A stretch of 36,126 bases of DNA, taken from positions 1 through 36,126 of the IMG/VR virus record IMGVR_UViG_3300033405_000047; one strand, written 5' to 3'. The first letter of the stretch is position 1. Each line of letters starts with the position of its first letter. Below are positions 3,845-31,906 of this stretch, piece by piece. The notes under the pieces are model-generated. The model searched no databases, was not told the origin of the DNA, and saw only the letters and a list, made by a program, of their open reading frames with translations. Made by a program: the position numbers and the translations under genes. Source of the stretch: a virus (Duplodnaviria > Caudoviricetes).

Positions 3845-3914
3845 GTGAATGGTGAATAGTGAATGGTTAAATCTTAGAATCGCTTTTATTCACCATTCAC
3901 GTTTCACCATTCAC
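3845..3914. repeat. Heptamer (GTGAATR)n ... (YATTCAC)n inverted array, copy B1
   Basis: gtgaatg gtgaata gtgaatg ... cattcac gtttcac cattcac, between gp46 and gp47. Confidence 0.9.
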
Positions 3915-3934
3915 GCCTTTTGCCTTTCTTGCAT

Positions 3935-9374: not shown

Positions 9375-9407
9375 AGACCCTAAGGGTTTTAAAAACCCTT
9401 AGGGTCT
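9375..9407. repeat. 33-bp palindrome, copy A1
   Basis: agaccctaagggtttt-a-aaaacccttagggtct. Confidence 0.95.
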
Positions 9408-9916: not shown

Positions 9917-9949
9917 AGACCCTAAAGGTTTTTAAAACCTTTAGGGTCT
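9917..9949. repeat. 33-bp palindrome, copy A2
   Basis: agaccctaaaggtttt-t-aaaacctttagggtct. Confidence 0.95.
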
Positions 9950-10333: not shown

Positions 10334-10366
10334 AGACCCTAAAGGTTTTGGAAACCTTTAGGGTCT
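10334..10366. repeat. 33-bp palindrome, copy A3
   Basis: agaccctaaaggttt-tgg-aaacctttagggtct. Confidence 0.95.
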
Positions 10367-12049: not shown

Positions 12050-12086
12050 GGTGACTCCTTTTTAATGACGTGAATGGCTAAAACCT

Positions 12087-12157
12087 GTGAATGGTGAATG
12101 GTGAATGGTGAATAAAACCGTTTTTAAGCCATTCACCATTCACGTTTCACTATTCAC
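12087..12157. repeat. Heptamer inverted array, copy B2
   Basis: (gtgaatg)3 gtgaata aaaccg ... cattcac cattcac gtttcac tattcac; an extra unit at 12070. Confidence 0.9.
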
Positions 12158-12161
12158 GCTT

Positions 12162-13148: not shown

Positions 13149-13181
13149 AGACCCTAAGGGTTTTGAAAACCCTTAGGGTCT
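13149..13181. repeat. 33-bp palindrome, copy A4
   Basis: agaccctaagggtttt-g-aaaacccttagggtct. Confidence 0.95.
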
Positions 13182-13186
13182 TGTCT

Positions 13187-13669
13187 TTATTCCCTCTGAT
13201 GTGACCAGTAGTACGCCGTGGGGCCGGCGGTGCTGGTGTTGGAAAACGGCGTCACTGTAACCGAAGTGTATCCCCGGTTCAGCGCGATATCGAAACAGCC
13301 TCCCGGTTCGATGATCGTACTGGCATTGCTACCGAGCTGGACCCGAATCGGCACGGCGACGCCGCTGCTGTTGGTTACGCATCCGGCGGCGCGCCGGAAC
13401 CATTCGGGGTAGCCGCTTGCTGTCCCGGTATAGTTGTTGAAGGTAAAAATCAACCGGCCCTTGTTGACGCTTGTGGTGCCGGACCGCTGGAATTCGATTA
13501 TCGGAGCCTTGGCGGTATTGTTCTGGACAACAACACCGTCCACGTAAGCCGGCGTGCCAGGGGGCACCGGCGTCGTCGTGGGGATGGCGAGGGCCGAAAT
13601 GGTGCCTGCCGCGACCACGACGGCACTCAGGGCGATTATCCTGATCTTGGTAAGCTTGATTGTTTTCAT
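13187..13669 (-). CDS. Putative exported beta-rich protein in the head module
   Basis: Basic n-region, hydrophobic h-region, ALA cleavage-like site; two Cys; five N-X-S/T sequons; GGAG SD upstream. Confidence 0.8.
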   Translation of the reverse strand: MKTIKLTKIRIIALSAVVVAAGTISALAIPTTTPVPPGTPAYVDGVVVQNNTAKAPIIEFQRSGTTSVNKGRLIFTFNNYTGTASGYPEWFRRAAGCVTNSSGVAVPIRVQLGSNASTIIEPGGCFDIALNRGYTSVTVTPFSNTSTAGPTAYYWSHQRE

Positions 13670-13721: not shown

Positions 13722-14891
13722 TTAATCCTGAGTGAGCAGGACGACGTCCAGGAGGCCGAGGGTGTTCACCACCGGCAGCGGTTTGGATTCGCCGAACAGG
13801 GTGTAGCCGCTGCCGTCCGGGTTGCGGTATGGTTTGATAAAGAGCGGCATGGGTTCCAGGTTGGCGTCCAGGTTGTCCAGTGCGGCATAGGGAAGCCTGT
13901 GACCGGCATCGGTGCAGATCGCCTTGAGCGTGTTCGGGGCGATGATCGGGAGGAAATTGCCGGTCTCGGGATCGGTGTATTCCTCGGCGCGCAGCTCAAC
14001 CTTGATGGTGCCGATCATGATGTAGTTGTCTTCCGCCTTCAGGGAGACGCCCGCCTCGGTCAGCAGCTTTGTCGAGGTCAGCACCTTGGAGACGAGCTGG
14101 AATAGCCGCATGAAGACGTCCTCGCCGGCCCAGAAGAGGATCTGGGAGGTGCCGACGCCAAGGCGTTGGAAGACCTTCCGAATCTCAACGAACATTTTGA
14201 GGATGTCCATCATCAGAATGGTCGGATCGTCCAACATCTTGTAGCTGCCCTGGGGAAGCGACTGGAGGTTGCCGTAATTGATGGTGAAGGTGTCGTAACC
14301 TCCCCCCTCCACGGCAACCGGATATGAAAATTGCCCCTTGAGCGCAGCCGAGCACATGGCCTCGGTGGTGGCCCGGATTGTCCGGCGCAGGATATCGGTT
14401 TTCGTCTGCGCCCACACATCAAGGAGTTCCTTGCTATTGGGACCGCCCTGGAGGAATAGGCGCAGGTTGTTGAGATCGACACCGACAACGTCGACCTTCG
14501 GCTTGATGGGCAGAGGTTCCCAGAACGTGGTGCTCCCGGTGGAACCGACAATGGAGATTGACGGACCTCCACGCTTAGAGAGAGCCATCGCCCTGATGCG
14601 CTGTTGGACGATGTCGGAGCCTACCAGTGGTCCGGGCTGCTGCGGACGGTCCTTGAAAATTGTGTCCATGATCACGGTCGGATAGGCGGGACCAAGGATC
14701 TGGAGATAGCGGATGATCGCTTCACGGGTGAACAGGTTGCGGATCATGACGACGCCGGCGATGCCGATAAACGGAAGATGGCCGGTGGCCGCCATAACGG
14801 GCGTGCCGCCGCAGAATGCAAAGGCCGTGACGGCGAGGAGCAAGAACAGGGCCCAGACGGTGATGGTGGATCGGAGAATGCGGTTCGGCAT
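13722..14891 (-). CDS. Major capsid protein (lambda gpE-like family) with ~48 aa hydrophobic N-terminal leader
   Basis: T.EAMC..AL.G motif and C-terminal ESKPLPV; follows the decoration gene; AAAGGAG SD 6 nt upstream of the ATG at 14891. Confidence 0.85.
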   Translation of the reverse strand: MPNRILRSTITVWALFLLLAVTAFAFCGGTPVMAATGHLPFIGIAGVVMIRNLFTREAIIRYLQILGPAYPTVIMDTIFKDRPQQPGPLVGSDIVQQRIRAMALSKRGGPSISIVGSTGSTTFWEPLPIKPKVDVVGVDLNNLRLFLQGGPNSKELLDVWAQTKTDILRRTIRATTEAMCSAALKGQFSYPVAVEGGGYDTFTINYGNLQSLPQGSYKMLDDPTILMMDILKMFVEIRKVFQRLGVGTSQILFWAGEDVFMRLFQLVSKVLTSTKLLTEAGVSLKAEDNYIMIGTIKVELRAEEYTDPETGNFLPIIAPNTLKAICTDAGHRLPYAALDNLDANLEPMPLFIKPYRNPDGSGYTLFGESKPLPVVNTLGLLDVVLLTQD

Positions 14892-14925
14892 AAAGGACTC
14901 CTTTGTAGGTAAATGATGGTTCGGC

Positions 14926-14958
14926 AGACCCTAAAGGTTTTGAAAACCTTTAGGGTCT
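14926..14958. repeat. 33-bp palindrome, copy A5
   Basis: agaccctaaaggtttt-g-aaaacctttagggtct; abuts the decoration gene stop. Confidence 0.95.
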
Positions 14959-15318
14959 CTAACTTGGGAATATCCCGTGGGACTGGAGCGCAATAATATC
15001 GGCCTGGGTCGGCGCGGTCTGGGCAGTCTTGTCGATTTTCAATACAGGCAGATTGACGCTGCCATGGATGACGATGACGCCCGACGTCTCATACCCGGTA
15101 TCGACAGTGGTGTCCAGGACACCGATATAGGGGTCTCCCTCTTCGGCTTGTACCCAGGTGATGCCATCGCCGCCCCGCTTGAGCACCAGCCCGACCGGAT
15201 AGATGCCGTCGTTAGCGGTGAGCAAACCGGCTACCACTACGGGAGGATGGCCGCCGGTGGAACGGGCGCGTTGTTCGTCGCGGCTGAAAGTTGCAGTTTG
15301 TCCATTGATTGGTGACAT
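14959..15318 (-). CDS. Head decoration protein (lambda gpD-like)
   Basis: 119 aa between scaffold and capsid; G.VL, GVL...VD, HG.V and L..HGIF motifs. Confidence 0.8.
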   Translation of the reverse strand: MSPINGQTATFSRDEQRARSTGGHPPVVVAGLLTANDGIYPVGLVLKRGGDGITWVQAEEGDPYIGVLDTTVDTGYETSGVIVIHGSVNLPVLKIDKTAQTAPTQADIIALQSHGIFPS

Positions 15319-15337
15319 GCTTGGCTCCTTTAAAGGC

Positions 15338-15365
15338 GTGAATGGTGGATAGTGAATGGTGAATT
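15338..15365. repeat. Heptamer array, half copy B3
   Basis: aaaggc gtgaatg gtggata gtgaatg gtgaatt; overlaps the protease stop. Confidence 0.8.
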
Positions 15366-15741
15366 AAACGTATTTGGTGATGTCGGCCGGGATGGCTTTT
15401 GATGTTTTAGCCGGCTCCGTTGTGTCGCTGAAATCGAACTCGCTGAAGTTGATGACCTTGGGCGAGGAACTGAGAAGGGCCTTGATGATTTCGGCCGGGG
15501 TTTGGGTTTTCTTGGCATCCCCCTCGCCAAACTCGATGGTGTCTCCGGTGGTGACGCCCTCGGCAAAGTCGAGCGCGGCTACGGCTGCTAACTTGTTGGT
15601 CGCTAGCAGGCGCCCTTCCTTGACGAGGCCCTCGCAAAACTCCAGGTTGCCGGCGTGCTTCTGGTCGTTGAGCTGGTTCCTCAGTTTTTTCTGGCCTTCG
15701 AGCAGCTCTTTTTCTCTTTTTTCCAACTCTTCTTTGGTCAT
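15364..15741 (-). CDS. Nested in-frame scaffold protein (Mu gpZ-like)
   Basis: Internal ATG (MTKEELEK) preceded by AAAAGGAG at good spacing, as in Mu I/Z. Confidence 0.7.
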   Translation of the reverse strand: MTKEELEKREKELLEGQKKLRNQLNDQKHAGNLEFCEGLVKEGRLLATNKLAAVAALDFAEGVTTGDTIEFGEGDAKKTQTPAEIIKALLSSSPKVINFSEFDFSDTTEPAKTSKAIPADITKYV

Positions 15742-16404
15742 GGCGTCTCCTTTTGTTGGTTCACTGAACTGGGAGGTATGGGAATCATGGGAGTTATAGG
15801 AAATCGTTGTGTCCTCGTTGGTCTCTTCCTTGTCGGGCATGGCTGCCGAGACGGCGAGGTCCGTTACCTGGTAGTCGGGAATGACTGAGTCGGCCTTATC
15901 CTTGCCGAACGTCTCGATGAGGAAGTCGCGGAGGTTGCGGAACAGGCCGGCCACGTTCATATCATCCCAATCGGCGAACTCGATCACCCCTTCCTCGCCC
16001 TCGGCGAAACTGACCGCGCCCAGGCCCTTGCAGCCGGGAGGCACGGCCCCCAGGAAGCCTAAATGGCGGAGGTAGTAGACGCCGGGGACCGGGTTGCTGG
16101 GACTGTCGGGGCTGTACCAGGACGGCGACACCCGGTCCCAGCGGCCGGCGTTGACCGCTTCCGCGAACTGGGGATCGAGTTTTGCCGGTTCACCCTGGTA
16201 CAGGTTATCGGCGAACTCGATGCGCTGGATGGTGCCATACTTTGGATCGTCCAGCTTGGGGTGGCCGATCACCATGGGCGCGGCATGCAGCACCGGGTTG
16301 TAGGCGGCTGCCGAAGCGCGGAGCTGGGCTTCGGTGAAGTTATGCACGTTGCCCTTGGAATCCACGTGCCTGCCGGGTTTGAAGATTTTGATCATCTTTG
16401 CCAT
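15364..16404 (-). CDS. Mu gpI-like prohead protease/scaffold
   Basis: IFKPG.H, AP.VIGHP, RVSPSWY and YLRHLGFLGAVPP motifs; charged C-terminal scaffold. Confidence 0.9.
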   Translation of the reverse strand: MAKMIKIFKPGRHVDSKGNVHNFTEAQLRASAAAYNPVLHAAPMVIGHPKLDDPKYGTIQRIEFADNLYQGEPAKLDPQFAEAVNAGRWDRVSPSWYSPDSPSNPVPGVYYLRHLGFLGAVPPGCKGLGAVSFAEGEEGVIEFADWDDMNVAGLFRNLRDFLIETFGKDKADSVIPDYQVTDLAVSAAMPDKEETNEDTTISYNSHDSHTSQFSEPTKGDAMTKEELEKREKELLEGQKKLRNQLNDQKHAGNLEFCEGLVKEGRLLATNKLAAVAALDFAEGVTTGDTIEFGEGDAKKTQTPAEIIKALLSSSPKVINFSEFDFSDTTEPAKTSKAIPADITKYV

Positions 16405-16618: not shown

Positions 16619-16651
16619 AGACCCTAAAGGTTTTTGAAACCTTTAGGGTCT
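16619..16651. repeat. 33-bp palindrome, copy A6
   Basis: agaccctaaaggttt-ttg-aaacctttagggtct. Confidence 0.95.
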
Positions 16652-17229: not shown

Positions 17230-17243
17230 TGTTTCTCCTTGAG

Positions 17244-17314
17244 GTGAATGGTGAATGGTGAGTTAAAACCGCCTTTAAGCCTTAACCATTCACTATTCAC
17301 GTTTCACCATTCAC
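17244..17314. repeat. Heptamer inverted array, copy B4
   Basis: gtgaatg gtgaatg gtgagtt aaaaccg ... cattcac tattcac gtttcac cattcac. Confidence 0.9.
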
Positions 17315-17318
17315 GCCT

Positions 17319-19757
17319 TTAAAGTTTTTCGAGCCGGCCGGTGGCCGGGTTGAGCCACTGCTCACCGGGGTTGTAGTCCCATCCGGGATCGATGCCGCGC
17401 GGGATTTCGTGAATCTCTCCTGTCTTCTTGTCCACCCATTCATAGGTGCCGTCATCGGGCGCCTTATCGGGACCGGTCTTGCCCATGGCCGCAAGTTCCC
17501 GCTTGCCGGCGGACAGGACCTTGCAGCGGCAGCCCCAGCCGTTGGGCGTGTAGTGGGTCTTCCACCAGGGATCCTTGGCCGGCAGCGTCGTGCCGTTCCA
17601 GGAAAGGTGCAGCGGCCGCGGCACCCGGCTGTCGCCGTGGCGATATTCCAAATACGGATTGACCTGGAGCAGGTCGGGATCGGTCAACTGTTCCCAACGG
17701 CCGGCGTTGTAGGCGGTGCGGATGTTGGTGTCGTAGATCGTCTTGCTGCGCCAGCCGCGTTCTCCCTTGTAGCTCCAGCCGTAACGGGCTGCGATGGCGT
17801 CGAAGTCCTTAAGGAAGGCGGCCTGAGTAGTGCCGTCGGTCAGGGCGGTCTGGAGGGATTCGCGGAAATCCGCCAACTGATAATCGAGCATGACGCCGGC
17901 GACGGTGAATTGTTGGCTGTGCTCTCCCTTCCAGACGTCGGTCCAGGATTCGCTTGTGACGTTCAACTTTTGGCGGAAGAACTTGATAGCCTGGTCGAAG
18001 GGGAGCGGGGCGCCCTCGGCGAAGTCTAAGTCTAAGACCCTAAGGGTTTTCAAAACCCTTAGGGTCTTGTTTTTGACCTTGGCGAACCAGGACCCTTCGC
18101 TGAACTGCACTCCATCCACCTTAACCTCATCCATGACATCGGATCGGCCGGTGAGACGGGCCACTGCACAACCACGGGCCAGGGCGTTTGCCGCCTGTTT
18201 GATGTCCAGGTGGTTGCGCAGATCCCCGAGGGTGTCGAGGGCCGCGGCCAGGTCTCGGGCGGTCGCTATGTGGTGGTAGATGGCGGCTATGAGGGAGGAC
18301 CCGTCGTCCTCGGTCATGGCCTGGGTGGAGATGGCGTCAATTTCGTCAGGCGTGGCGCCCTCGGCGAAGGGGAGACAGTGCGGACAGTGGTGCTCGGCGA
18401 AGTCGGGGGTTTGCTGTTGATCTTTCCCTGCTTCTACCACCCCCTTGCCCACTCCTGATCCAGGAGGCGGTGTCTTCGGCATCTCCTCCAGTTCTTCGAT
18501 ATCGTCTTCCTCCAGACCGTGGGTCCGGACGAAGTATTTCTTGGTGAGCCGGTACTTGCCACCCGCGAGGAGCGCCGCAGCCAGGGCCTGGTCCTGCTCG
18601 GCCAGGGTCTTGCCGTCCTCCGAGTCCTCGCAGATGATCCTGATCTGCGAGTACCGGTTGAGGCCGGGGAACTGGTAATCGATGAGCCAGGGGATAGTGC
18701 CGTTTTTCGGGTCGTTCTGCGGTTCGCACAAACTGTCCGCGTCGTCCTTGATGTAGTCGAGGTAGACCGCCTCCTGTTCCTGGGAGTCACCGAGCTTGCC
18801 CGGCTGCCCGCCGGTGGTGGCGAGCTGGCCGAGGATGGAGATGGTTATGTCGTCGTTGCAAAAATCGACCAACTCCTTGTAGCTGCTGATGTTGCCGCTT
18901 TGCACCTCCTGGAGGAGGCGCAGCGCCATGCCCTGGGGAAACACCACGGCGCTGTTGCTGTGGACAGAACCGGCGGCGGCCAGAAGGTCCTGCTGTTTTC
19001 CCTGGTCGGTACCGGGTGGATATTCGCCCAAGACGGTGGGCGCAGCATGCTTCTCCAGCCACTGCACCCATAATTTGATGTCGGTGCGCTTGAAGAACCA
19101 CGGCCAGTACAACTCCATGCCCAGGCCATTGCCGTAGGGTGAGATAACCTCGTCGCCGAAAGTGAAGGTCTGAAATTTGCGCAGCAGCAGGCCGCTGGCT
19201 TGGTCGATGGTAACGTTTTCACCGGGATAGGGGTTATCAATGGTAAGCAGATGCAGATCGCCGTTGGGGGCGTATTTGAAGCGGCGCTGGTGTCGGTAAC
19301 GCATGGATGAGACAAAGGTGCAGCCCTCGGAGTAGTCCCACATGACCTCCGAGATGGCGAAGCCTTTTAGGATGCCGCCGCGCAGCACCGGACGCCGGGC
19401 CAGGTCGTAGGGAAACGATTTGAACACCTGGTCCACGTATTCTGCCGCTTCGATATCGATCTTTTCCTGGGAATAGGGGACGATCTGCCATTCGCGGCCT
19501 ACGACTGCCTTGGCGCGGGTGCGCAGGTTGGCCGCCACCCTCGGGTCTCTGCCGATCTTGTCGTATAGGGTGATATCGCCGCCCGCCTCCAGGTTGAGGA
19601 TCTCGTCGGGATTTTCCATGATAGGGAGCCACGCCTGGAAGTTATAGACATCCGTGGCGGCCGAAGCGATCTCTTCGCGCACCGGTTTGTTGACGTCGAC
19701 CTTGATCACCGGGGAGAGGGCTGAGCCGAACTGGTCGTATAGGGTTACCTGGTTCAT
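17319..19757 (-). CDS. Fused portal (DUF935/gp29-like) and gpF-like head morphogenesis protein
   Basis: N-terminal portal motifs (G.A.SEVMW, EK...P...G.YP, ILGQ..TT); C-terminal gpF motifs (FTVAG, TNIRTAY.AGR, PR..H..W.G, PNGWGCRC); one 812 aa frame. Confidence 0.88.
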   Translation of the reverse strand: MNQVTLYDQFGSALSPVIKVDVNKPVREEIASAATDVYNFQAWLPIMENPDEILNLEAGGDITLYDKIGRDPRVAANLRTRAKAVVGREWQIVPYSQEKIDIEAAEYVDQVFKSFPYDLARRPVLRGGILKGFAISEVMWDYSEGCTFVSSMRYRHQRRFKYAPNGDLHLLTIDNPYPGENVTIDQASGLLLRKFQTFTFGDEVISPYGNGLGMELYWPWFFKRTDIKLWVQWLEKHAAPTVLGEYPPGTDQGKQQDLLAAAGSVHSNSAVVFPQGMALRLLQEVQSGNISSYKELVDFCNDDITISILGQLATTGGQPGKLGDSQEQEAVYLDYIKDDADSLCEPQNDPKNGTIPWLIDYQFPGLNRYSQIRIICEDSEDGKTLAEQDQALAAALLAGGKYRLTKKYFVRTHGLEEDDIEELEEMPKTPPPGSGVGKGVVEAGKDQQQTPDFAEHHCPHCLPFAEGATPDEIDAISTQAMTEDDGSSLIAAIYHHIATARDLAAALDTLGDLRNHLDIKQAANALARGCAVARLTGRSDVMDEVKVDGVQFSEGSWFAKVKNKTLRVLKTLRVLDLDFAEGAPLPFDQAIKFFRQKLNVTSESWTDVWKGEHSQQFTVAGVMLDYQLADFRESLQTALTDGTTQAAFLKDFDAIAARYGWSYKGERGWRSKTIYDTNIRTAYNAGRWEQLTDPDLLQVNPYLEYRHGDSRVPRPLHLSWNGTTLPAKDPWWKTHYTPNGWGCRCKVLSAGKRELAAMGKTGPDKAPDDGTYEWVDKKTGEIHEIPRGIDPGWDYNPGEQWLNPATGRLEKL
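18035..18067. repeat. 33-bp palindrome, copy A7, in frame inside portal-gpF
   Basis: agaccctaagggtttt-c-aaaacccttagggtct; encodes TLRVLKTLRV. Confidence 0.95.
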
Positions 19758-19777: not shown

Positions 19778-19810
19778 AGACCCTAAAGGTTTTTGAAACC
19801 TTTAGGGTCT
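19778..19810. repeat. 33-bp palindrome, copy A8
   Basis: agaccctaaaggttt-ttg-aaacctttagggtct. Confidence 0.95.
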
Positions 19811-22977: not shown

Positions 22978-23433
22978 TCAATTGCCCATGAGGGGGACGT
23001 CGAAGGCAAAATACGTGGTGGCGCTCGTCCATGCTTTTTTCTCGGATAGCCCCGATTGCCAGCCTCGCGAGCCGAAGCCGAAACCGATGGGGACAGCTCC
23101 GATCGTGGTGATGGTTGTGTGGATCAGCAGGTTGAGGGCCGTTACCTCGTTGGTCCCCACTTTCGACAACTGCGGGCCGACGTAGAGGCCCACGGTGTCG
23201 AACATACCCGAGCCGGTGAACGTGTAGCCCTCGCCGATGAAGAGGCCGGCGGACAGCAGGTTGTAGTCGCCGTTGAGGTAGAAGGCACCTACCGACCCGA
23301 GTATGCCGGTGTTCCACCCCAGGGTCGGGGCTGAGGTGGTTACCTGTGTGGTTGCCGGGGGCGTGGTGTCGGCAAAGGCGATGGCGTTAGACAGGCACAA
23401 GGCGATGCAAATGACCGATGCAAGTTTTTTCAT
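22978..23433 (-). CDS. Putative exported beta-strand-rich protein
   Basis: MKK + h-region + AFA signal; alternating hydrophobic/Gly strands. Confidence 0.75.
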   Translation of the reverse strand: MKKLASVICIALCLSNAIAFADTTPPATTQVTTSAPTLGWNTGILGSVGAFYLNGDYNLLSAGLFIGEGYTFTGSGMFDTVGLYVGPQLSKVGTNEVTALNLLIHTTITTIGAVPIGFGFGSRGWQSGLSEKKAWTSATTYFAFDVPLMGN

Positions 23434-23791: not shown

Positions 23792-23824
23792 AGACCCTAA
23801 AGGTTTCAAAAACCTTTAGGGTCT
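23792..23824. repeat. 33-bp palindrome, copy A9
   Basis: agaccctaaaggttt-caa-aaacctttagggtct. Confidence 0.95.
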
Positions 23825-23841: not shown

Positions 23842-24348
23842 TCAAATCCCCTCGTTGATCTTGAACCGGAGCGCCTGCCACTTGCCCAGGTATTTGGCCA
23901 GCCATTCCCCGCAGTCCGATGGCGACATTTCGGCCATGACCATGTTTAAGAACAAGCCGATGGCGGATGTCACGGTGGCCACAACCTGGCTGCAAAAATC
24001 CTGGGTGGGGTTCTGCTCGACCAGCTGGACCGGCAGGAAATTCTTGGCGATTCCCTCTTTGTTGTAGGAGAGTTTGACGCCGTAGATCATGTCGGCGTTG
24101 TACATCATCTGCGCGGCCTTCCAGACGATCTCGTTATCACCCTCGACGGTGCCGAGATCGACTATGTCCCAATCATTCATATCTTGCGAGACAAGCTGCT
24201 CGAATGAGCAGATGCGCGGACCGTCTTCGAGCGTGGAGCTGAAAAACAGCCCCGGCTTGATCTCCAGTTCGATATGGGCGTATTTGCCGGTCCATGCCTC
24301 GATTACCACCGCCCAGAGTGCGTTGCCTTTGTAGAGCCAGATTTTCAT
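23842..24348 (-). CDS. Putative permuted papain-like (NlpC/P60 superfamily) enzyme
   Basis: N-terminal YAHIEL (His), later Y, then FCSQVVA (Cys) and SP. Confidence 0.6.
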   Translation of the reverse strand: MKIWLYKGNALWAVVIEAWTGKYAHIELEIKPGLFFSSTLEDGPRICSFEQLVSQDMNDWDIVDLGTVEGDNEIVWKAAQMMYNADMIYGVKLSYNKEGIAKNFLPVQLVEQNPTQDFCSQVVATVTSAIGLFLNMVMAEMSPSDCGEWLAKYLGKWQALRFKINEGI

Positions 24349-28268: not shown

Positions 28269-28301
28269 AGACCCTAAAGGTTTTGGAAACCTTTAGGGTC
28301 T
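28269..28301. repeat. 33-bp palindrome, copy A10
   Basis: agaccctaaaggttt-tgg-aaacctttagggtct. Confidence 0.95.
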
Positions 28302-30040: not shown

Positions 30041-30080
30041 GGGTTTGAACCTCCTTTGTGATGATAATGGTTAGGACCTT

Positions 30081-30165
30081 GTGAATGGTGAATAGTGAAT
30101 GGTGAATAAAACCGATTTTAAGTCTTTAATCCTCTACTCTTCACCATTCACGTTTCACCATTCAC
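30081..30165. repeat. Heptamer inverted array, copy B5
   Basis: gtgaatg gtgaata gtgaatg gtgaata aaaccg ... cattcac gtttcac cattcac; contains the TGA stop of the upstream gene. Confidence 0.9.
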
Positions 30166-30491
30166 GCCTTTTTCCTTTGACATTGTTTGCAGGCCCGGTA
30201 CATCCGGGCGTAGAAGCTGTCCGTCGTGGGCTGGCGTTTTCGGTGGCCGGAGCATTCGGCCAGGGTCAGTTCTCCCAACTCCGGGCAGGCTACGGTTTCT
30301 CCGCCCAGGACCTCGCGAATGCGACGCTCTATGGCGTCGGGGGCCGCGTAAGTGCCCTTGCGGTATTGGGACATCTGACTGTCGGAGATGTTGAGCTTTT
30401 TGGCCACCTGTGCGGCGCCCCCTTTGCCCCTGGCGTCGTTGTGCTCGGTGATGGCTTGCTCCAGAATGGTTCTGAGTTCGGTGGTCGTCAT
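30162..30491 (-). CDS. HTH/Cys-motif early protein
   Basis: VAKKL.IS...SQ...G.Y, V.CP.LG and CKQC motifs; start MTTTEL overlaps the upstream stop. Confidence 0.75.
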   Translation of the reverse strand: MTTTELRTILEQAITEHNDARGKGGAAQVAKKLNISDSQMSQYRKGTYAAPDAIERRIREVLGGETVACPELGELTLAECSGHRKRQPTTDSFYARMYRACKQCQRKKA

Positions 30492-31873: not shown

Positions 31874-31906
31874 AGACCCTAAAGGTTTCGTAAACCTTTA
31901 GGGTCT
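31874..31906. repeat. 33-bp palindrome, copy A11, supplying the transposase stop
   Basis: agaccctaaaggttt-cgt-aaacctttagggtct; TAG at 31879-31881. Confidence 0.95.

Follow-up and report, generated by a model that had tools for sequence, protein, structure and literature searches.

A capsid gene opened by a 48-residue leader

The window analysed here is the whole stretch of 36,126 nucleotides of virus record IMGVR_UViG_3300033405_000047 (Caudoviricetes), a 36-kb record with a CheckV completeness estimate of 93%, and our subject is a leader encoded at the start of its major capsid gene. The window carries the genes of a Mu-like transposable phage (transposase, MuB-type ATPase, GemA, Mor and terminase, as well as a Mu portal fused to gpF, gp36/37, sheath, tube and baseplate) and is a near-complete Mu-like phage. 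The open reading frame (ORF) at 13722-14891 on the minus strand is a 389-aa frame opened by the ATG at 14891. Its core, residues 49-389 (13722..14747, minus strand), matches Pfam family PF03864 (Phage_cap_E) from residue 68 (E 2.8e-33; 115.8 bits against a cut-off of 22.9) and PHROG 29 from residue 49, and the predicted model has the HK97 fold, with the YSD1, Chi and lambda capsids as its best Foldseek matches (E about 1e-12). Since the profile match and the fold agree with the position of the gene between protease-scaffold and neck genes, we identify the product as a lambda gpE-type major capsid protein. The nearest relatives with named records are prophages in deltaproteobacterial (56%) and Geobacteraceae (54%) metagenome-assembled genomes (MAGs), from which we infer a Geobacter-type host. 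The sequencing runs that contain window DNA are peat metagenomes, and no RNA run was found among those listed.

A Shine-Dalgarno (SD) sequence, AAAGGAG, lies 6 nt ahead of the leader ATG (14898..14904, minus strand) and is the strongest of those at three candidate starts: duplex energies with the anti-SD sequence were -8.4 kcal/mol at M1, -5.0 at M33 and -1.7 at M49, and starts at M33 or M49 were rejected on this account. The proposal of the sequence-only reading that the ATG at 14891 with its AAAGGAG adds a 48-aa leader is thus confirmed in the sequence, and the family models begin just after that leader. The same reading had the capsid-like part begin at M49 without an SD. The SD there is indeed weak, and we see no sign that translation initiates at 14747, but M49 aligns with the Asn of an N-I-R motif in the homologues and is therefore not a conserved or ancestral start.

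Among 52 homologous proteins, a leader built in the same way and 44-53 aa long is present in 28, a figure that counts the window's own cluster. At the DNA level, three scans gave 218 loci, or 219 with the window, and 217 of the 219 had a capsid match. The core N-terminus was matched in 208 loci, 27 with a leader and 181 without (duplicates included), and was missing from nine of the 217. Removal of near-copies and of one broken locus, L001, left 17 leader and 128 leaderless loci. L001 was left out of the counts because its capsid N-terminus was lost by rearrangement; in this relative (L001:2938-4035) early genes abut a capsid gene that lacks its start. In the relatives the leader is either complete or cleanly missing, and its frame showed no break in any of the 17 non-redundant loci that have it. 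Leaderless loci have an SD of their own and start at the core, 95 of the 128 at one to three codons before the M49 position and 50 at exactly two. In leader loci a strong SD stands at the leader ATG in all but one case; L013 has a stronger SD at an inner GTG. Since 14 of the 17 leader loci have no ATG, GTG or TTG at positions -4 to +1 of the core, the leader must be translated in them. The ratio of nonsynonymous to synonymous divergence (dN/dS) was 0.17-0.56 for the leader and 0.06-0.21 for the core in 10 pairs drawn from five close relatives. Taken together, these comparisons indicate that the leader is almost certainly translated. The leader DNA is intact, with one change, in an independent run (X4, 14669-14936); a single-base variant at 14851 gives Ala14 in the window and Gly14 in P0001, L141 and runs X1 and X4.

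The SD had also been described as lying within a self-complementary mini-hairpin. Such a hairpin can be drawn (14892..14904, minus strand; 5 bp with a 3-nt loop), but nothing marks it as more than chance, or as functional. Its folding energy of -2.1 kcal/mol corresponds to z = +0.56, with 140 of 200 shuffles folding equally well, and its pair probability in a context of +/-35 nt is 0.03-0.04, so that it would be 3-4% formed. The 5-bp stem between SD and spacer is seen once among the 17 leader loci, in a near-identical twin of the window, and in none of 128 leaderless loci, and the energy needed to open the start region (6.6 kcal/mol) is equalled or exceeded in 6 of the 17 leader loci and in 34 of the 128 leaderless ones. 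We found no stable, conserved stem over the SD of the kind that sequesters it for control, and a role as translational regulator was rejected because the hairpin is weak, rarely formed and not conserved; it looks like a chance feature without a role. An in-frame ATG at the core boundary and a hairpin that can be drawn are what would favour a start at Met49 behind a neutral upstream frame, or a hairpin switching between two starts. Given the SD energies, the rarity of the folded form, the 14 relatives without a start codon in that place and the purifying selection on the leader, we consider this reading extremely unlikely.

Anatomy and distribution of the leader

The leader has the layout of a signal peptide followed by a second hydrophobic segment. 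An n-region of residues 1-8 with Arg4 and Arg7 (14868..14891, minus strand) is matched by a Lys or Arg within the first eight residues of all 50 leaders compared. The h-region, residues 9-27 (14811..14867, minus strand), is a predicted membrane helix by AlphaFold2 and conservation: AlphaFold2 models a single helix over residues 3-28, with a predicted local distance difference test (pLDDT) score of 94 for residues 11-20, and its Trp, Trp13 in the window, is invariant in 37 of 37 leaders. This first segment is strongly hydrophobic, with a best 15-residue hydropathy of 2.5-2.7 on average over 50 leaders. The c-region, residues 28-34 (14790..14810, minus strand), ends in P-V-M-A, with a predicted signal peptidase I (SPase I) cut between Ala34 and Ala35; an alternative site in the window is A-F-A at 23-25. 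An [AV]-x-A site followed by a small or common residue is found in 49 of 52 leaders against 18.9 expected from shuffled linkers, figures that do not amount to a p-value since the pattern was chosen after viewing the sequences and the sequences are related. Forty-six of these 49 sites lie at W+17 to W+22, and in 39 an acidic residue follows within eight positions.

A short linker and a second hydrophobic segment follow, residues 35-48 with Pro40 and Gly46 (14748..14789, minus strand). In the 52 leader rows anchored on the core alignment the Gly is invariant; in Mu-gpT leaders it was chosen by rule instead of by the core anchor. A second cut is predicted between Gly46 and Val47 (14754/14753). 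Numbered from this cut, P1' is F, L, I, V, M or Y, P2' is V or I in 47 of 52 rows, and P2 and P1' are variable and often bulky. The piece between the two sites is 11-21 residues long (median 17; 12 in the window), and the last 15 residues of the remnant have a mean hydropathy of 1.4-1.7. Nonsynonymous to synonymous polymorphism ratios (pN/pS) by region, from five close relatives with leaders of equal length, were 0.20 for the n-region, 0.16 for the h-region, 0.08 for the c-region, 1.47 for the linker and 0.26 for the second segment. By this comparison the leader is constrained at both ends and free in the spacer between them. Cutting behind the Gly would leave an N-terminus as long as that of the commonest leaderless form. 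In three of six Mu-gpT leaders the ancestral Met directly follows the Gly, with weak SDs there (energies of only -1.5 to -5.7).

Strong, full-length matches to a leader profile are capsids. Its weak partial matches are mostly ordinary host exported proteins, which align with roughly its first 36 positions and include periplasmic binding proteins, a multiheme cytochrome, a peptidyl-prolyl isomerase and an L,D-transpeptidase. The n-, h- and c-region anatomy agrees with the earlier proposal of a membrane-targeting, signal-peptide-like leader, and the further proposal that the leader is later removed is probably right as well; targeting to the membrane and cutting by SPase I are in our view very probable. 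Two other processing signals were tried and rejected: a lipoprotein box at Cys27 is not conserved, and Gly46 does not suit prepilin peptidase, since no Glu stands at +5 and the upstream side is hydrophobic. A search of the ESM Atlas with residues 1-62 gave no usable match, and alignment of the leaders gave no usable DNA pattern.

Leader-bearing and leaderless genes exist as natural pairs with cores 87-95% identical. In the closest comparison, L008 (leader) and L047 (leaderless) share cores that are 95% identical, and a clean block that follows the ATG sets them apart. On the core tree the two states are mixed, with 16 changes in 68 rows, 10 of them forced by well-supported branches, compared with a shuffled mean of 22.1; a stricter tree, with 13 leaderless protein rows without DNA set aside, has 9 changes in 55 rows. 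A profile of 37 leaders recovered this leader in lambda-like phages too, on capsids of a second Phage_cap_E subfamily, where leaders up to 57% identical (median 34-35%) stand on cores about 20% identical. In all, the leader type was found on Phage_cap_E (three subfamilies), Mu-like_gpT and GP7 capsids. In 239 genomes of the order to which G042 belongs the profile gave 10 matches in 9 genomes, nine of them capsid N-termini, of which three were members of the profile, and the tenth containing a stop. A wider profile (E <= 0.01) gave 30, 29 and 26 matches in 239, 233 and 401 genomes. Twenty-nine of these 85 were translated and 25 scanned against families: eight are capsids with full-length matches, and most of the other 21 match exported or membrane proteins of the host over part of the profile. 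Since the only strong match in the phylum-wide sample is a member of the profile, the leader type is found mainly in two related orders. Against 1.84 billion representative sequences the profile gave three matches, all capsid N-termini, and a word-based search returned known members only. As far as these sequence searches reach, the leader is a portable, optional module on three Pfam capsid families. Neither this mobility nor the conserved Gly46 formed part of the sequence-only reading.

Each of 12 leader-bearing virus records has one strong match per genome, always the capsid, and no leader on a non-capsid gene or standing alone was found in these records or in the genome searches. Nor did any gene family track the leader, beyond lineage-linked genes, when the 12 were compared with 10 leaderless virus records. 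These results bear on the possibility that the released leader peptide is itself the selected product, being membrane-active or a competitor that occupies host SPase or site-2 protease, carried along on the late protein made in greatest amount, with release of the capsid incidental. A leader that is optional, mobile between capsid families and under selection of its own would suit such a role, whereas its absence from any other gene and its low residue identity (median 34%) would not, and we regard this as very unlikely.

One further observation concerns L360, a podovirus-like prophage with a leader-bearing GP7 capsid. Its scaffold-like gene (L360:10295-11011, minus strand) starts with a short hydrophobic stretch that ends in Gly and is followed by an acidic, Pro-rich run, as if it were the second segment without the signal peptide. 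A suggestion that L360 lacks a prohead protease was dropped, since PHROGs labels this scaffold-like gene 'protease'.

Candidate proteases, proposed route and neighbouring features

The window encodes a prohead protease-scaffold at 15364..16404 (minus strand; PHROG 976, E 1e-97). The junction between leader and core is unchanged beside prohead proteases of PHROG 976 (the window), of PHROG 328, and of S49 and ClpP types, a constancy across four kinds that argues for a common enzyme from outside the phage. The protease-scaffold contains seven F-[ASCG]-E motifs and its homologues one to eight per row (17 homologous rows); four more occur in the portal-gpF product, a single 812-aa ORF at 17319-19757 (minus strand) whose four F-[AS]-E motifs lie in the joint region. 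None is present in 50 leaders. Glu-specific head proteases offer an analogy for cutting at such motifs, which are probably the self-cleavage motif and cut sites of the PHROG 976 protease, and the protease-scaffold is probably not the enzyme that cuts the leader.

The sequence-only reading had proposed membrane-tethered prohead assembly, which can be pictured as shell formation at the membrane from precursors anchored by the leader, followed by removal of the leader by the phage's own prohead protease. The protease-scaffold two genes upstream would serve this well. T4 heads do assemble on the inner membrane, T4 being the only case of membrane-bound head assembly noted in a 2011 review, which describes it as not shown for other phages (PMC3185693), and Matrishin et al. 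suggest that prohead proteases cut the SignalP-positive capsid ends of Porphyromonas gingivalis phages (PMC10367356). The evidence from this leader points the other way: the junction is the same beside four protease families, the likely phage-protease target motif is missing from the leaders, the SPase-type site is the most constrained part of the leader, leaderless twins exist, and the leader is on every subunit and not on the portal initiator. Moreover, the N-arm of the 80alpha capsid engages the scaffold in procapsids (PMC5744158), and a membrane anchor in that place would more likely block closure of the shell than seed it. With a leader that is dispensable, and carried by every subunit on an arm that engages the scaffold, tethered assembly as first formulated is not supported and we judge it unlikely; parking of monomers in the membrane appears better supported.

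No candidate for an intramembrane protease was found among the phage genes. Rhomboids were found in none of 40 virus records (7 at least 90% complete; many of the records are fragments) and M50 proteases in none of 28, the window included (8 at least 90% complete). There was no intramembrane protease among the 46 window ORFs, nor among 29 scanned of 37 ORFs with several transmembrane (TM) segments, the eight left out being capsids and off-frame ORFs. Among 21 multi-TM ORFs near 13 further leader capsids, a motif check made without a Pfam scan found GxSG once, in a 181-aa protein, and HExxH nowhere. M50 genes are present in all eight host MAGs of the relatives, and each of 41 genomes from the order has a short one.

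The best-fitting precedent for cutting by a host enzyme of this class is Pro-sigmaK. As described in PMC11486902, the pro-sequence crosses the bilayer with its N-terminus outside, and SpoIVFB cuts it at S21|Y22; Trp at S21 (P1) or V23 (P2') abolishes cleavage and is tolerated at V20 (P2), Y22 (P1') and K24 (P3'). The leaders match this pattern, with P1 always Gly, P2' V or I in 47 of 52, and P2 and P1' variable. The small P1 and the non-bulky P2' that face the zinc site in a site-2 protease (S2P) substrate are thus found in 52 of 52 and 47 of 52 leaders, respectively. As for the N-out span of about 20 residues in such a substrate, the leaders offer 11-21 residues (median 17), the 12 of the window not being helical in the model. 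SPase I acting as the site-1 protease has a precedent in RsiV (PMC10202637). We take the match to Pro-sigmaK as a resemblance, with a host rhomboid as a possible alternative.

We propose the following route. Translation from 14891 would, as the comparison of relatives indicates, include the leader, whose residues 1-34 have the anatomy of a signal peptide and would probably direct the chain to the membrane by the Sec pathway or the signal recognition particle (SRP). SPase I would then cut after Ala34, leaving a 12-residue piece (family median 17) that could hold the capsid N-out/C-in in the manner of Pro-sigmaK, so that the protein would be parked on the cytoplasmic face of the inner membrane. 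A host intramembrane protease, for which a SpoIVFB-type S2P (M50) seems the best fit and a rhomboid the alternative, would cut after Gly46. The freed monomer, with the N-terminal length of its leaderless relatives (two codons before the core), would enter the cytoplasm, and shells would assemble on the phage scaffold as in leaderless phages. The leader would be a module for timing or sequestration, not a scaffold. We give even odds to this two-cut model, in which SPase I and then a host intramembrane protease free the capsid after Gly46, and the release of the capsid by a host cut at Gly46, taken by itself, is likewise evenly balanced; that the enzyme is an M50 protease is a tentative assignment. 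Equally tentative is the wider reading that Geobacter-type phages carry a portable cassette for regulated intramembrane proteolysis, which could precede the start codon of any HK97-fold capsid and release a monomer with its native N-terminus, SPase I and host S2P together gating head assembly. Possible purposes, were this true, include timing of head assembly or hiding the capsid from cytoplasmic phage sensors; by its title, a 2025 paper (PMC12578639) reports on TIR systems that sense capsids.

Several points weigh against the two-cut model. The combination of a small P1 and a hydrophobic P2' carries little information and suits rhomboids as well, and a turn in the chain could be the reason why the Gly is invariant. 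A test for plain A-x-A discriminates poorly (33 of 37 against 26.6), and the more specific SPase I pattern was, as said, post hoc over related rows. The piece between the sites is short in the window, at 12 residues, and has no acidic residue; AlphaFold2 gives no helix for residues 29-49. The core of the second capsid subfamily begins D-I-F-D, with no positive-inside signature, so that stop-transfer is not assured. The core tree cannot tell leader gain from loss, and the leaderless twins mean that the leader step is not needed for head assembly. A complex prediction of the short host M50 with zinc and capsid residues 30-70, made for one MAG, scored 0.01 and is evidence for neither side.

Two other readings keep the signal peptide and dispense with the second cut. 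In the first, SPase I removes residues 1-34 and the remnant slips from the membrane and stays as an extension of the N-arm, the Pro...Gly being structural. With 11-21 residues and the hydropathy given above, the remnant is marginal for a span, and 80alpha capsids tolerate an uncleaved N-terminal extension (PMC5744158). This reading leaves unexplained why an invariant Gly stands in register with the ancestral Met on unrelated capsids, and the acidic N-out end (39 of 49) would not easily re-cross the membrane; we find it improbable. In the second, part of the capsid protein is exported to the periplasm as a decoy, exclusion factor or supply limiter, and shells are built from molecules that escape. 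Residues 1-34 resemble host Sec signals, the acidic core start of the second subfamily would not stop transfer, and an exported beta-sandwich gene follows the capsid gene. Against this, most leader loci have no internal start, so that escapees would keep a 48-aa hydrophobic leader, the cores of leader-bearing genes are under strong purifying selection, and the second hydrophobic segment is found on capsids only. We accordingly give partial export little credence.

The gene that directly follows the capsid gene (13187-13669, minus strand) encodes a product with a signal peptide and, by prediction, a domain folded as an all-beta jelly roll (pLDDT 71); the best structural Z scores, 8.8 to a GOLD domain and 8.3 to PliG, are not decisive. 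Homologues sit after the capsid in L009, L080, L143 and L087, and since the L087 capsid is leaderless, this gene is not tied to the leader. On the other side, a 119-aa gene in the head-decoration position (14959..15318, minus strand) is without a leader and has no Pfam or PHROG match; its position is kept in relatives. In the lysis region, the first gene of the pair 22978-23433 and 23842-24348 (minus strand) has a signal peptide and belongs to no known family, and the second, of 168 aa, matches PHROG 1128 and may be a permuted papain-like enzyme.

Between the upstream gene and the capsid SD lies a 33-bp palindrome with a 15-bp stem (14926..14958), which is not part of the leader system. It is one of 11 copies in the window (9375-9407, 9917-9949, 10334-10366, 13149-13181, 14926-14958, 16619-16651, 18035-18067, 19778-19810, 23792-23824, 28269-28301 and 31874-31906), which show compensatory changes and are mostly intergenic, one being in frame inside the portal-gpF gene. 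By its sequence the family is REP/MITE-like (resembling repetitive extragenic palindromes or miniature inverted-repeat transposable elements). It occurs in one of 337 related loci, the window's twin, and at nine places in six other viral contigs, and the high depth of reads and contigs suggests further copies elsewhere in the sample. A second repeat family, of GTGAATG-type units that partly form inverted pairs, occupies five intergenic loci (3845-3927, 12086-12161, 15328-15375, 17236-17327 and 30080-30178).

Comparison with known systems

The capsids of lambda (gpE), YSD1 (gp17) and Chi share the core family PF03864 and the fold of the window protein; they are 330-355 aa long and have no such leader. 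No cultured phage was found to match the window's capsid protein; among cultured phages, the 25 best matches to the second subfamily begin to align no earlier than residue 46-48. The HK97 delta domain is a long, charged coiled-coil propeptide that serves as scaffold, whereas the leader here has 48 residues, is hydrophobic with one helix, and stands beside a separate protease-scaffold gene. We found no description of a two-segment capsid leader in the literature searched, outside which most subscription papers fall, and no paper there that links a capsid with a signal peptide to rhomboids, a site-2 protease or Geobacter.

The f1/M13 procoat yields a mature coat that is a small membrane helix extruded around DNA, whereas the product here is a 340-aa HK97-fold subunit. 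The likeness lies in a phage coat signal peptide that is cut by the host leader peptidase after insertion, as the review describes for f1/M13 (PMC3185693). For tailed phages, the one printed mention found of capsids with predicted Sec signal peptides concerns those of P. gingivalis phages; these have 668 aa and a short N-terminus that leads into a charged scaffold-like domain, without a second segment, and a close homologue was scored no_SP (PMC10367356). By sequence, that N-terminus is a different element from the window leader. In 80alpha (PMC5744158) a dispensable capsid leader of a tailed phage is removed by a host enzyme, a likeness to the present proposal, but this enzyme, Prp, which also cuts the leader of the scaffold, is a soluble ribosomal protease and the leader is no membrane signal, whereas the element here combines a signal peptide with a second segment. 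The window leader is not of the short, soluble, L27-extension-like type that Prp would cut; no search for Prp itself was made.

Pro-sigmaK and SpoIVFB come closest. Both systems would have a short hydrophobic N-out pro-segment and a cytoplasmic domain freed near the cytoplasmic side (PMC11486902 and PMC10202637), with a small P1, V at P2' and bulky P2 and P1' tolerated. They differ in that Pro-sigmaK is a sigma factor with no cleavable signal peptide or site-1 cut, and that its cleavage has been shown where that of the capsid is inferred (PMC11486902).

The shell proteins of tailed phages are generally assumed to fold in the cytoplasm and to assemble there. A selected, portable, signal-type leader suggests that, in some temperate phages, the structural protein made in the largest amount first passes through the machinery for membrane insertion, and such capsids run the risk of being mis-called as secreted or trimmed to an internal Met in annotation. 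If the two-cut model is true, it would be a viral use of host regulated intramembrane proteolysis, would supply a candidate substrate for the orphan site-2 protease present in all 41 genomes of the order, and would provide a simple tether-and-release tag. Compared to the systems above, what appears to be new is a single leader type across three Pfam capsid families that is independent of the kind of prohead protease, the lack of a detectable phage membrane protease beside it, and, as a proposal, a specific model in which the host S2P releases the capsid.

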